A DNA stretch of 64,000 bases from Lophium mytilinum (taxonomy: Eukaryota): assembly GCA_010093605.1 (NCBI GenBank), contig MU004183.1, positions 1,674,001 through 1,738,000 of the forward strand. Reading direction: 5' to 3'. The notes under the pieces were generated by a model. The model searched no databases, was not told the DNA's origin, and was given only the letters and a program-made list of their open reading frames with translations. Below, piece by piece: positions 22,000-49,777 of this stretch. A program made the translations under genes and the position numbers. The number at the start of each line of letters is the position of its first letter. Positions within the stretch are counted from its first letter, which is position 1.

Positions 22000-22238
22000 T
22001 TTCGCGTCGGCCCGAGGCAGTGCAATACGAGCGACACTGTGCTCCTGAACATAGGCAAGCCCAGCGGCCCAGGAGCGGTTTCCAAAGACTGGATTAATCT
22101 TGAGAGATCCCGTAGGATCGTTTCAGAGATTAAACTGAAAAGAACAGATACTACACTTGATCTAAGCCAAAAGGCACTGTAAACACTGTTAGCAAAAGCG
22201 CGAAACTTTGGGGGGAGGGGTCAATTTACAAGAGAGCT
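22000..22238 (-). ncRNA. U2: U2 spliceosomal snRNA gene containing a 53-nt spliceosomal intron (22177-22229)
   Basis: Minus strand reads AGCTCTCTT[GTAAAT...GCTAAC AGTGTTTACAG]TGCCTTTTGGCTTAGATCAAGTGTAGTATCTGTTCTTTTCAGTTTAATCTCTGAAA. It shows the branch-recognition sequence GTAGTA, stem IIa, stem IIb (GATCC-TACG-GGATC), the IIc complement AGATTAA, stem III, and stem IV with a TATTGCAC loop. The ends are approximate. Confidence 0.96.
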
Positions 22239-26897: not shown

Positions 26898-29800
26898 TTA
26901 ATCCGGCTCGTGGCCCTCATCAATTTTAGCAGGCACGCCGCCCGAGAACCCGTCTGATGCTCCAATTTCCATACGCGCCACTTTGGCTGCATGGCTTTCC
27001 GCGCTTGCTTGCTGTGCCAGAGTTGTCGCTGTCGGTTTCGTAGACGGGTCTGAAGCGGCTGACTGCGCTGGGAGGTTTGGGAGAAGAGGTTTGCTTAGTC
27101 GAGGCGCACCCGCCGCTTTGCTTGCGGAATCGCTTTTTTGGGAATGCTGAGAAGACGTCCTGGGTGATACTCGACCATTCTATACAGTACATGATCAATA
27201 AGTGCCGCATGAAACCATATGGACTAACATAGTTGACGGCCGGGAGGGATACGGGGGAGAATTAGTGGTGCGACTCACTTGTTTAGCCCATCGTAAACCA
27301 CAAGAATTACAAAGATCTCTGTTCCCCGAGGGCCCCCTTCGCCACTCTGGAGTGACTCGAGTGTGACAGTTGGCGCAGTCTTTCTGCAGCTGACCGGCGC
27401 CCTTTCTCCTCTTTCGTTTCTTCTTTGCTGCCAATAAGCTCTGCACCTCTTCCGCCAGGAGACGATTTCGCTTTTCCATCTGGCGTAGCTCGAATTGCCA
27501 GCTGGTGCTTCTCGTTGTCTTGAGCTCATCAAACACATTCTCTTCCGAAGCTAGCGAATAGTCCTGATGACCGAGTTGCAAACCCTTCTCGCCGCCAAAA
27601 GTGGCAGCCGAGGCGTCAGTTGTGACAAACTGACTACCCGAAACTCCAGTCTGCGGTGTGCTGCTACCTGTAGCCACCATCTGGCCTGATCCGATGGCAC
27701 TCGATGCATCACCTGACGCGTTTGAAACGGAGCCTTCCCCAGAATTGCGCTCTCTAGGATATAGACTGGGACGTGGAGTGCTTTGAGTACTATTCCCGCT
27801 ACGCGAATATTTCAGTAGCCTCGTTTGTGCAACGAGAAAGGTCGGTTTCTGACCCTCTATGGCATCGCCCGGATACAGAGTGGTAAATGCCTGGAGCACC
27901 TGTCCCCTCTTGTTCATCATCTCGTGTTTTACTTCGCCCTTCCTGCCTGTGCGAGTAAGCTCGAGTATGCGCCCGAACTCTGCTTTTGAGTCCTGTCGCA
28001 TAAGAGCCTGTATACTAGTGCCGACTAGATCCTCGGGCTGTCGGTCTAAAAGCTGACGAACATTGGAAGAGACGAATAAAAACATCCCCGACGTGGACAT
28101 TTTGGTCCACAACTCGTTGTCGCCGATACCTCCTGAGGACCGGATGTCGCTCTTAGTGAGTGTGTATACCGGCCGTTCGCGCCCGACGAGTATAATGCAC
28201 TTGCGGCCTTTACCCTGCTCTGTATGGAGCGAGCCATGACCTTCAAACCACATGTATCCGTTCCTCTTTCGGAGTATTCTAAAAACAACATTGACAGACG
28301 CTCCGCTGGATGTGTCTTTCAACTCTCTGGTGACAGGCACAATGTCACTAGGATGGCAAACAGACGACAAAGCGCTGCCATTCAGTTCGGTGGGATCGTA
28401 CTCCAATACCTTCTGACAGGAAGGTGACAGGTACAAGAATAGACCCTTCAGAGACAACACATACACGACGTCATCTGTATTCTCTAAGAGAACCTTATCC
28501 CATATCCTTCTCGTGAACTCGGAGTCTCCGGACGTGCTGAAAGTGCTCAAGGCGTTGGATACCTCATCTCGTGTCACGGTTTGTGTTGTGTCCAAGGAAG
28601 CGGAGTTATGGTCTGTAAAAACATAATCGGGAAGTCTTCCACCGCGTTGGTAGTTTACAGTATACGATCCATCTGTTTGCGGTCAGGATTGTAAAGGTGA
28701 AATTGGCTTCATAAACTGCATCGGCTTACCCGGGTTTTTGTTTGTCATTGAAGCTGGCTGCTCCACGAGATCAACCTGAAAACCAACATAGTACTTGATT
28801 TCGTCGCTTTCTGCCATAGTAATGGGAATCATGGTCAGCAGATTCATAAAAGGCTGCCCGCCTCTTCGGTAGTTGATCAGACTAATCTGCGCCTCTTTCC
28901 GCATATTGATCATGTTCTTGAGATAAAGAACGGAGTCATCGTCCACGTATTTCCGCTTTATGCCCGCTTCAACGTAGCCATCTGGTGACTGAAGAAACCG
29001 GCAATTCCTACCAAGGATCATGTGCTTGGTATAGCCAGTCAAACGCTCAAAATTGTCGGAACAGAAGACGATGGGTACGTCATCCTTTTGAGCGTCACAA
29101 ACCACGAATGCGCAAGAAAAATCCACATTTCCAATATTGATCTCCGGATTAGGCCTGGTAGCAACGCGAGTCTTGTCAAATATTAGGCTCTTCCTATAAT
29201 CTAGCGCACACTACAAAGGCATACGTACGAGGACCTCAAGCATATTGAAACCAGTCGAAGAATACGCGTTCTTATACTGAGCGTGCTCCACATGTGGGCG
29301 GCCACCCATCGTCGAAGGGAAGCCATCTGCTAGCAAGTCAGCCAGAGTCCCTCGCCTGTCATTAGGCTTCTAGGGAAAGTTCACCAGTGGGCGCCCTCCA
29401 AGGGAACTTTAACCCATTGTTAGGTGGTAGCGACTTCTCTAGGTGTCGAGAAGGTTCTGGTCGAAAGGATGAAACCGTTGGTATCTGGTTGGCAGAATTC
29501 CGAGCGGAGGACGGGTCACTTTCGGGTTGAGAGTTAGATCGGAAGCCTTGTTCTTGACTACCCGGTCGGGAGGGCATGGAGGATTGTACGTCGGGAGTTC
29601 CGTTGCCAGACTCTGGTCCGAAGTGGTCGTTGGTCTGTATGGTGCTGTTGGAGTTCTCCCGAGGAAGCCCCCGAGGCGTGGGACCAAAGTCTGGGCTTAC
29701 GGGAGAGGTCACCATGGGGGACGCAAATTGTGGTTGAGAGTACAGATTTATGTCGTTGTTCATCATGGGGTCATTTTCTAATGGGATGGCTAATCCAGGA

Positions 29801-46858: not shown

Positions 46859-49777
46859 ATGGCAGACGCCCTAGCCGTCATTAGTGTTGTAGCGAGTATC
46901 GTCCAGCTCGTCGACTTTGGCAACAGAGTTTTGCTTCGCCTCAACGAGTTCCACACCAGTGCGGGCGAAGTTCCAAAAACATTTCAGCATATCAAAGCAG
47001 AATTGCCAGTGCTACTGGACACCCTTGAACAGACCAAAACTGGCATTCAGTCCGGCTCTGTAAGGGATGAAACTAAGAAGGCTCTTCTTCCCGCTATCAA
47101 TGGGTGTCGAGCGCAGATAGAATTACTTGATACTGTTATTGGGAAGATATTGCCACTGTCAAGTGACTCTTGGAGAGAGAAAAGCAGAAAAGCGGTTTCG
47201 AGTCTTCGCCAGGACGCGAAAGTTAGGAAGATAAGAAGCGATCTGCAGGGTTATATTCAGACTTTGACATTCTACCATGCCGCTGCCTCATCGGCGGTAC
47301 GACCTTTAATACGTAAGTCTAGAAATTGAAACATGCGATAGGGATAGGAAGTAGGTACGAGCCCTAATGCTCCTCAATTAGAAAATCCGTCATCTCCGTC
47401 CTCAACAGTCCCTTTTCGACGTGATCGAGACTTTGTGGATCGTGATATCCTCTCCGAGATACATCAGAAATGTTCCCAGCCAGCATCTCGAGTGGCACTA
47501 GTAGGGCTTGGAGGCGTAGGGTACGTTTCAAACTAGAAGAGCCTGAGGAGAGACCGAATTGACCATGCGAGTAGGAAGTCTCAACTTGCTATCGAGTACT
47601 CCTACCAAGTGCAAGAGAAATCACCGGATACCTGGGTCTTTTGGGTCCACGCAAGTAGTGGTGCCAGATTCGAAGAAGGCTATAGGAAAGTCGCTGAAAG
47701 AGTAAAGATCCCCGGCCGCGAAAAGCCAGAAGCCGATATACTACACCTCGTTAGCGACTGGCTTTGCGATGTAGCAAATGGCCATTGGGTCATGATAGTC
47801 GACAATGCCGACGACCCTAACGTATTTTACTATCAAGGTGATGGAAATGCGGATAAGGGCGGGAGTGGCGGGAGTGGCAGTTCAGCACCACAAACAAAGT
47901 CTATATCCGACTTTCTTCCTCAATCGCCTAATGGATCCACTCTCATCACTTCCCGGAACCGAGAACTAGCTTTCAAACTGACGGAAACTGCTTCGGACAT
48001 TATACAGGTCGACCCAATGGACCAAGATCATGCTCTGGCCCTTCTTCAAAAGAAACTCGGTAGTAGTTGCAATGGGGACGATGCGGTAAAGCTTCTAGAG
48101 ATGCTCGACTTTATGCCCCTTGCTATCACCCAGGCAGCTGCATATATCAACCAAAGGGCACCACGTATTACAGTCTCTAGGTATCTAGAAGATCTGAGCA
48201 GGGGTGACGAGGAAGGAGTAAGTCTACTAAAGAAGGATGTCGGAGACTCCCGCAGAGATGGTAGCTCATCAAACTCTATTATAGCCACTTGGCAGATGTC
48301 ATTCGAGCATATCCGCCAAATAAAACCTTCGGCTGCTAGGCTGCTGTCGCTCATGAGTCTCTTCGACCGGCAAGGCATCTCCGAATCACTGCTTGATCAC
48401 CACTACCAGGAAGGTGATGTCAAGGACGACTTCGAAGAAGATATACACACCTTGAGAAGTTATTCGTTAATCGGAACGAATATCGATGGCAACGTGTTTG
48501 AGATGCATCGGCTGGTCCAGTTCGCAACAAAGGCCTGGCTGGAGATGAACGACGAGCTAGAAAAGTGGAAGGAGCAGTATATTGAGGTGCTATATGAGGC
48601 TTTCCCGGTAGGGCGATACGAGAATTGGAAAACGTGTCTGGATTTGTTCCCACACGCCGAGAGTGTCCTTAGATATCGACCGACAAACGAGACCCGCCTA
48701 AACCAGTGGTGTTCGATCCTATTCAATGCTGCATGGTACGCTGATGACAGAGGAAATTACAAGTCCGCAGAGGAGATGAACCAGCGAGCGCTGAAAGGGC
48801 TCAAGAAAACGATAGGGTCAGAACATCCCTCTACGCTAGCCTGCATGGAAAATCTAGCGTTAGCGTACAGGAAGCAGGGGAGGTGGAAGAAAGCCGAAAA
48901 GCTAGAGGTGCAAGTGATGGAGATAAGCATTAGGGTGCTTGGGGAGGAAGACCCTTCCACGCTAACTAGCATCGCCAATCTTGCGTCAACATATTGGGAG
49001 CAAGGGCGGTGGAAGGAGGCCGCAGAGCTACAAGCAAAAGAGTTGCAGATATGCTCGAGGGTGCTTGGAGAGGAGCATCCTTCTACGCTAACTAGCATGG
49101 CCAATCTATCGTTAACCCTTTGGAATCAAGGGCGGCGGAAAGAGGCTGCAGAGCTACAAGCGAAAGAGTTTCAAATTTGCTCGAGAGTGCTCGGAGAGGA
49201 TCATCCTCTTACACTAACTAGCATGGCCAACCTTGCGTCAACATATTGGGATCAAGGGCGGTGGACAGAGGCTGAAGAGCTGCAAACAAAAGAGTTGCAG
49301 ATTTGCTCGAGGGTGCTTGGGGAAGATCATCCTTCCACGCTGACCAGCATGGCAAACTTTGCATCAACACTTTGGAGTCGAGGACGGTGGAAGGAGGCTG
49401 AAGAGCTGCAAGAAAAGGAGTTGCGAATTTGTTCAAGGGTGCTTGGGCAAGATCATCCTTCCACATTGATTAGCATGGCCAACCTAGCATCAACGTACAG
49501 GAAGCAAAAGCGATTACAAGAAGCCGAAGACCTACAGAAACAAGAGTTGGAGATGTGTTCTAGATTATTGGGCCAAGAGCACCCGGACACGCTGAAAAGC
49601 ATGCAAAATCTTGCTTACATTTTCAAAGACGAAGACCGTCATGATGAGGCTATAGGGTTGATGGATACATGTGTCCAGTTACGGAAGAAAGTATTAGGAG
49701 TAGAGCACCCGCATACAGTTTCTTCTCTTGAATTGCTGGACGAATGGCGCGTGGAGCAGACGTCTCCTAGATCGTAG
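46859..49777 (+). CDS. Fungal NLR-like STAND protein: SesA/HeLo-like N-terminal domain, NB-ARC, TPR repeats
   Basis: N-terminus MADALAVISVVASIVQLVDFG. Introns 47313-47381 and 47521-47574 reconstitute VPFRRDRDFVDR and the P-loop GLGGVGKSQLA. Walker B WVMIVDNADD, LITSR, LPLA-like MPLAITQAA and MHRLVQ follow, then about 7 LGEEHPSTLTSMANLA repeats. Confidence 0.92.
48805..49720 (+). repeat. 126-bp (42-aa) TPR tandem repeats with high internal similarity
   Basis: Repeated RVLGE(E/D)HPSTLTSMANLASTYW.QGRWKEA.ELQ.KELQICS units with near-identical DNA in the central copies. Confidence 0.9.

Follow-up and report, generated by a model that had tools for sequence, protein, structure and literature searches.

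An interrupted U2 gene on the minus strand

A 64,000-nucleotide (nt) stretch of contig MU004183.1 (positions 1,674,001 to 1,738,000), here called the window, was analysed for a U2 small nuclear RNA (snRNA) gene at its positions 22238-21996, which the initial annotation had described as split near its 5′ end by a spliceosomal intron. The comparison with the Rfam family RF00004 that had been proposed there was carried out on unspliced sequence. It gave a match over the whole model (positions 1-192) on the minus strand at 22187-21996, with 127.4 bits against a gathering score of 46 (E 1.6e-25), and RF00004 was the sole family above threshold in the 64-kb window. In this alignment model positions 1-11 were filled with the final 11 nt of the insert, and a non-standard pair was flagged in stem I. 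Re-reading of the minus strand gave exactly the coordinates and letters that had been claimed for the split 5′ end. The elements of the gene are:

22238-22230, minus strand: exon 1 of U2, 9 nt, AGCTCTCTT, matching letter for letter nt 1-9 of the consensus 5′ end, which 40 related copies have uninterrupted
22238, minus strand: A, predicted by homology and promoter spacing to be the point where transcription starts and to carry the cap
22229-22177, minus strand: putative spliceosomal intron, 53 nt, from sequence signals and comparison with related U2 introns
22229-22224, minus strand: 5′ splice site, GTAAAT
22220-22210, minus strand: C-rich tract, CCCCTCCCCCC
22193-22188, minus strand: branch site, GCTAAC, with the branch A at 22189, 12 nt before the intron end
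22179-22177, minus strand: 3′ splice site, CAG, in the terminal TTTACAG
22176-21996, minus strand: exon 2, the U2 body, 181 nt, from the Rfam alignment, with its 3′ end taken from the end of the Rfam model

The predicted mature U2, comprising exon 1 and exon 2, is about 190 nt long. Exon 2 opens with TGCCTTTTGGCTTAGATC / TGCCTTTTGGCTTAGATCAAGTGTAGTATCTGTTC at 22176 of the minus strand and includes the remainder of stem I. GTAGTA, the branch-point reader, is found at 22154-22149, within a block that is perfectly conserved in the Rfam alignment. The fold of a working U2 that had been proposed was recovered in both the sequence and the Rfam alignment, i.e. stem-loop IIa with the loop TTAATCT, its complement AGATTAA (IIc) downstream at 22100-22094, stem-loop IIb with its UACG loop, together with stems III and IV. 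The Rfam score of the gene lies inside the span of 112-151 bits observed for other intron-bearing loci.

Removal of the insert had been claimed to rebuild a contiguous fungal-type U2 5′ end, and this was borne out. The first 29 nt of the spliced sequence showed 0 mismatches to the consensus of the contiguous copies, compared with six when the sequence was read straight through. The spliced nt 1-30 folded into a two-part stem I like that of an intronless relative, L025 (-7.7 kcal/mol), and replacing exon 1 by the intron tail left no more than a 3-bp hairpin (-4.4 kcal/mol). The signals GTAAAT, GCTAAC and TTTACAG were all present where they had been placed. The 11-mer formed by exon 1 and the following GT occurred a single time on both strands of the window, and an exact GT...AG solution restoring the consensus 5′ end was obtained in 0 of 20000 shuffles of the 240 nt upstream.

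Related U2 loci in metagenome contigs

Public metagenome contigs were searched with 28 invariant nt of the U2 body, which yielded at least 120 loci with 122 U2 copies. This anchor makes the survey blind to intron positions of about 19-45. Eight of the 122 copies had too little upstream DNA to be classed, and 114 were classed by their 5′ ends; window-type is our own label for a class defined in this way, and the metagenome loci carry no taxonomy. All counts of copies and loci refer to the matches listed, among which the classes were:

Window-type, 5′ end AGCTCTCTTTGCC... or a close variant, running uninterrupted into the body: 40 copies
Window-type 5′ end split by a GT...AG insert: 22 loci, 21 of them distinct (L102 is identical to L117)
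Different 5′ end, TACCACTCTGGCC, contiguous: 41 copies
Other 5′ ends: 11 copies

The presence of the intron in relatives, which had been suggested as a check, was thus examined on these metagenome loci, and 22 loci with the same kind of insert were found. Among the matches listed, 22 of 62 window-type copies carried a 5′ insert and 25 of 62 carried an intron of any kind. The 5′ inserts had the form GT...CTRAY...AG and were 51-74 nt long, except for one of 164 nt. They were distributed over ten positions between nt 5 and nt 18 of the mature RNA:

After nt 5: one locus
After nt 6: four loci
After nt 7: three loci
After nt 8: two loci
After nt 9: one locus (L050), plus the window
After nt 10: one locus
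After nt 11: six loci
After nt 13: one locus
After nt 16: one locus
After nt 18: two loci

When the insert was removed, the 29-nt consensus was restored with 0 mismatches in 19 loci and with one mismatch in three loci, where it was a loop variant that is present in contiguous copies too. Read straight through, the same 22 loci showed 4-15 mismatches. The locus L050 is split after nt 9 like the gene of the window, but its intron sequence differs. Three copies with contiguous 5′ ends carried introns in the body, after nt 51 in L119 and after nt 54, in the IIa loop, in L051 and L100. These body inserts (GTGAGT/GTGAGG...TGCTRAC...YAG, 48-53 nt) lie just past the branch-point reader.

The GT, CTRAY and AG signals of the window agree with those of all 25 distinct U2 inserts, its own included. 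All 25 start with GT and contain a CTRAY box that puts the branch A 9-19 nt before the 3′ end. They close with CAG (17 inserts), TAG (five) or AAG (three) and measure 48-74 nt, apart from one of 164 nt. An nhmmer profile was built from 21 intronless window-type genes, and splicing was carried out in the script. The score of the window gene rose by 12.2 bits, from 163.3 bits unspliced (profile positions 10-192) to 175.5 bits spliced (profile positions 1-192), and splicing lifted the score in all 23 genes, by 7.0-21.9 bits. The median Rfam score was 133.1 bits for 21 intron-bearing loci versus 148.1 bits for 17 full-length intronless loci.

A 5′ intron was found in 0 of the 41 TACCACTC-type U2 copies among the matches listed; our guess is that these copies are basidiomycete. 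One locus of a different 5′ type, L089, showed ...CGCTAAC...TTAAG immediately before GCCTTTTGG and may be a candidate for a further 5′ intron, with an exon 1 that could not be identified. The intron of L030 (164 nt, after nt 18) contains GGTCCATTCGC and an A/T-rich box, similar to the pair of GGTCCGTGCGC and TATA that forms the promoter upstream of TACCACTC-type U2, and this element may be an internal or relic promoter. In two unrelated loci, L053 and L084, a normal U2 gene was found head-to-head with a second gene on the minus strand. This second gene has the promoter-proximal region and about 50 nt of the U2 start, including GUAGUA, in common with U2, and then runs on into a GC hairpin that is conserved, GGAGGACCTTCGGCCCTCC; an Sm site is not evident. 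The second copies of L053 and L084 scored 59.8 and 65.5 bits in Rfam and may represent a U2-derived chimeric small RNA.

Upstream of exon 1 of the window gene, the following elements were identified:

22290-22283, minus strand: A-rich, TATA-like box AGAAAATT (GAAAATT), about 51-52 nt upstream of the A of exon 1; a weak match with a presumed promoter role
22320-22314, minus strand: CTAGCGC, candidate proximal promoter element, from the enrichment of TAGCG upstream of window-type genes
22377-22334, minus strand: second copy of the promoter module, CTAGCGT...GATGAGTAAGC...ATTAAAATAAGG, from pairwise alignment

In the intronless relatives a strict TATA[AT]A box was observed 36-57 nt upstream of +1 in 28 of 36 copies. 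Eight of 23 intron-bearing genes had such a box 38-62 nt upstream of exon 1, and a looser list of A/T boxes, which was picked after seeing the data, raised this to 19 of 23. The inserts themselves contained TATA[AT]A in 0 of 23 cases. Since the promoter is spaced for exon 1, the insert would be transcribed. TAGCG, counted on either strand at 45-130 nt upstream of +1, was present in 14 of the 21 intron-bearing and in 16 of the 33 intronless window-type loci, and in two of 35 TACCACTC-type loci, the shuffled expectation being 0.143. Alignment of 22380-22329 with 22323-22277 revealed a common core, TAGCG..GATGAGT.AGC.CCA, followed by the A-rich box, i.e. a tandem duplication of the module. A pyrimidine-rich tract stands just before AGCTCTCTT on the minus strand of the window.

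Most of the 5′-proximal U2 introns (those of the window and of L007-L118) contain a C-rich tract 8-25 nt past the 5′ splice site and before the branch site. The mean C content was 0.40 in the 5′-proximal introns versus 0.255 in 22 candidate introns picked from the window by regular expression, and runs of at least four C were present in 18 of the 25 U2 introns versus 0 of these 22. A comparable C-rich tract is found between TATA and +1 of the intronless genes. Among 189 pairs of introns at different positions, 12 were more alike than shuffled sequences at z>3, and the intron of the window reached z 5.1 with that of L106. The C-rich tract could be a mark of common descent, a functional element or a trace of origin from promoter-proximal DNA. 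An origin of the introns by promoter duplication was considered and not adopted; the C-rich tract and the length are suggestive, but positions such as nt 11-18 would be left unexplained.

Interpretation of the split gene and rival explanations

The 5′ end of U2 forms stem I and later pairs with U6 in helix II. The locus is best explained as a U2 gene of the RNA polymerase II (Pol II) type in an ascomycete fungus, the primary transcript of which would start at the A at 22238 of the minus strand. The spliceosome would remove 22229-22177 and join 22230 to 22176, and the joined exons would rebuild the conserved 5′ end, allowing the extended stem I and then the pairing with U6 to form. The gene belongs with a widespread group of window-type U2 genes that have introns at no fewer than ten positions between nt 5 and nt 18, and also at nt 51 and nt 54. 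The analysis shows how the gene is built, that the conserved sequence is restored exactly, how the promoter is spaced and that many homologous cases exist; we infer the start site, the actual splicing and the supply of working U2 by this copy. A genuine spliced intron in a working U2 gene is, in our judgement, probable.

Several points weigh against this reading. The 5′ splice site GTAAAT of the window has the GT of the fungal GTRNGT-like consensus and an A at +5, where the other 24 of the 25 U2 introns have G, and splicing might therefore be inefficient. The putative Sm site, AGTCTTTGG at 22090-22082, departs from the ATTTTTG of most related rows. A strict TATA box was not found upstream of exon 1 of the window, where only the A-rich box is present. 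Finally, the case for the intron is comparative and structural, and the junction, the lariat and the mature 5′ end are predictions; of the 11 sequencing runs listed for the locus, none is recorded as RNA and two are merely guessed to be so. As regards the Sm site, L051 and L100, which are among the nearest relatives of the window gene, have ACTCTTTGG, the same variant form, which argues for a lineage trait and not for decay; the form is probably a lineage-specific variant.

If these irregularities are taken together, the intron architecture could be real and the copy nevertheless silent, poorly spliced or minor, with the bulk of U2 being supplied by another copy. The A at +5, unique among the 25 U2 introns, the non-consensus Sm site and the missing strict TATA box would all fit such a copy, as would the finding that two metagenome loci carry two U2-like copies each, and fungal snRNAs tend to be multi-copy according to excerpts of a study of U3 (PMC5832005). 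We nevertheless consider this explanation unlikely, as the body is intact, with 127.4 bits inside the range of the other intron-bearing loci, and no deviation is seen in exon 1, in the branch site or in the 3′ splice site. Relatives have the 3′ flank in conserved form, and L051 and L100 (85.1% identical) have the same odd form of Sm site, which is thus itself conserved.

Two further explanations dispense with a spliceosomal intron. Transcription might start within or just after the 53-nt stretch, giving a U2 with a divergent 5′ end, and the upstream AGCTCTCTT would then be a chance match or a relic. Rfam indeed aligns the full model to the unspliced sequence, with the last 11 nt of the intron as positions 1-11, and the 5′ end of U2 is not the same in all eukaryotes. 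A chance match is opposed by the shuffling, in which none of 20000 sequences gave such a match, and by the 22 other loci that are split likewise at ten positions, always with restoration of the consensus. The inserts contain no TATA[AT]A (0 of 23), boxes being found at normal spacing upstream of exon 1, and without exon 1 stem I no longer forms. A CTCTTTGCC-like 5′ segment is present in each of the 40 contiguous window-type copies, as follows from the definition of the class, and no copy of comparable body without such a segment was seen among the matches listed. A divergent 5′ end is thus very improbable. We hold a non-spliceosomal insert, such as a short mobile insertion or the remnant of a duplicated promoter, which would inactivate the gene or be removed in another way, to be just as improbable. 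It would be in keeping with the unusual C-richness of the 5′-proximal inserts, with the similar C-rich tract between TATA and +1 of intronless genes, with the resemblance of the insert length, 51-66 nt, to the distance from TATA to the start, and with the similarity of some introns at different positions (12 of 189 pairs at z>3). Against it stand the GT, the CTRAY at the right distance and the AG in 25 of 25 inserts, and boundaries that fit the conserved mature sequence to the nucleotide. On reading, which was not a dedicated test, neither terminal repeats nor target duplications were noticed. A spliceosomal intron accounts for all features, and a promoter duplication would concern the origin of the insert and not its removal.

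The 3′ flank of the window gene (21995-21950, minus strand) reads TTTTTTCATTGA...CTTGTCTGG..GCTTCGAAGAAGAAAT, with the block TTTTTCAT...CTTGT.TG...GCTTGAAGAAGAA directly after the U2 3′ end. Similar flanks were visible by eye, without statistics, in L051, L100, L025 and L119, and the conserved flank is probably a signal for 3′-end formation.

Possible intron turnover and relation to known snRNA introns

A quick IQ-TREE analysis was carried out with 52 window-type rows that have a body of at least 170 nt, using 177 columns from the part of the U2 body that lies downstream of the intron zone. The resulting tree was weak, 25 of its 47 inner branches being open. Intron presence and absence required at least 13 changes on this tree, at least six of them forced by well-supported branches; these counts may be affected by L051, L100 and L119, which were scored as having no intron and were misplaced with their body introns left in. 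The six genes with an intron after nt 11 formed one clade (support 99), and their introns were clearly homologous (z 5.8-9.3). The loci L007, L035 and L048 also formed a tight clade (support 99; 157-161 of 173-174 positions identical) and have introns after nt 7, nt 16 and nt 5, respectively; their contig names share one common prefix. L022, with an intron after nt 13, was sister to the intronless L056 (163 of 172 identical). L040, with an intron after nt 8, was sister to the intronless L032, with 159 of 173 body positions identical and homologous promoters, and the difference between the two is precisely the 53-nt insert. With introns removed, the mature sequence of the window was closest among the matches listed to L051 and L100 (85.1%) and to L017 (85.0%), none of which has a 5′ intron.

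The common position of the introns after nt 9 in the window and in L050 is not evidence of orthology. The two bodies share only 73.6% identity, and their introns show no significant similarity (z 1.7). As close relatives differ in both presence and position of the intron, the pattern points to repeated gain and loss, or to sliding, over one fixed ancient intron. We tentatively propose, as quite possible, that the first 18 nt of U2 together with the stem-loop IIa region, with at least 12 positions, form a hot spot of intron turnover in this lineage.

Introns in spliceosomal RNA genes are classic evidence on intron origin, notably for reverse splicing beside the catalytic core. In the classical model an excised intron inserts itself by reverse splicing into an snRNA situated close to the active site; reverse transcription and recombination then follow. 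Takahashi and colleagues reportedly described in 1993 a messenger RNA (mRNA)-type intron in the U2 gene of the basidiomycete yeast Rhodotorula hasegawae, the U1 and U5 genes of which are likewise said to contain introns. To our knowledge, U2 has been represented in the debate on intron origin by this single basidiomycete yeast. The two systems are alike in having a GT-AG-type intron in a conserved part of a fungal U2, so that the spliceosome processes its own RNA. They differ in that the R. hasegawae gene is basidiomycete and the present one of ascomycete type, and in that the intron of the window lies after nt 9, upstream of stem I, whereas the R. hasegawae intron is said to lie just downstream of the branch-site recognition sequence. 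Such a position would be nearer to the introns after nt 51 and nt 54 of L119, L051 and L100.

For U6, mRNA-type introns in fungal genes were reportedly described by Tani and Ohshima in 1989 and 1991 and by Canzler and colleagues in 2016, with multiple independent insertions said to have been proposed. U6 is a Pol III transcript, and its introns are clustered near catalytic residues. The fungal U6 genes resemble the present case in having spliceosomal introns in a gene for a spliceosomal RNA. They differ from it in that the U2 gene of the window is of the Pol II type with a TATA-like box, and in that the introns fall in the first 18 nt, the segment of stem I and helix II.

Fungal U3 offers a further parallel. 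Excerpts of a study by Canzler, Stadler and Hertel (PMC5832005) place 133 of 138 fungal U3 introns in the 5′ half of the first stem-loop, at several positions, with close species and even paralogs differing in intron presence; independent gain versus sliding was left open by the authors. In the same excerpts, no small structured RNAs other than U3 and U6 are named, in 2017, as often interrupted. U3 is, like U2, a capped small structured RNA with a spliceosomal intron near its 5′ end, at several positions and with patchy presence, and the difference is that another RNA is concerned. A study of small RNAs in Aspergillus fumigatus predicted U2 genes of ~276 nt with poor alignment, and in the excerpted text introns were not linked to U2 (PMC2377427).

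No report of U2 introns in ascomycetes was found in a full-text literature search, the coverage of which did not extend to most subscription journals. The initial annotation likewise knew of no description of an intron at this position; with 22 of 62 copies interrupted, the intron is, however, not a peculiarity of one genome. The intron of the window would be a case of spliceosomal introns that interrupt an snRNA gene at new positions and in a new lineage, and apparently do so commonly.

If cap-proximal U2 introns are common, annotation by covariance models would mis-call the U2 5′ end in many fungal genomes, and gain, loss or sliding of introns could be studied at one very short, sequence-invariant target in many lineages. 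U2 biogenesis in such fungi would need pre-existing U2, and U2 output in many fungi would depend strictly on existing spliceosomes. The feedback loop that had been suggested, in which the spliceosome matures its own branch-point reader, is speculation. U2 would, if the introns are real and undescribed, join U6 and U3 as an often-interrupted small RNA and provide a natural system in which intron gain by reverse splicing can be set against intron sliding. The C-rich intron element might have a regulatory or quality-control role, and first exons of 5 to 18 nt probe how near to the cap a 5′ splice site can function.

The U2 gene had been annotated as carrying a cap-proximal intron in a filamentous ascomycete. 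The intron was supported by the sequence tests, and the assignment to a filamentous ascomycete was supported loosely, by one neighbouring gene. Neighbouring open reading frames include those for a protein with PAS and GATA zinc-finger domains, one with TPR_10/TPR_12 repeats, an ATP-dependent DNA ligase and a mitochondrial carrier. Two of them are located as follows:

27195-28682, minus strand: PAS and GATA zinc-finger protein (white-collar-like)
47537-49777, plus strand: TPR_10/TPR_12 protein with DUF7779

The host can reasonably be taken to be a filamentous ascomycete (Pezizomycotina), and the nearest Atlas clusters of the PAS-GATA protein were mostly from Ascomycota (score 0.99).

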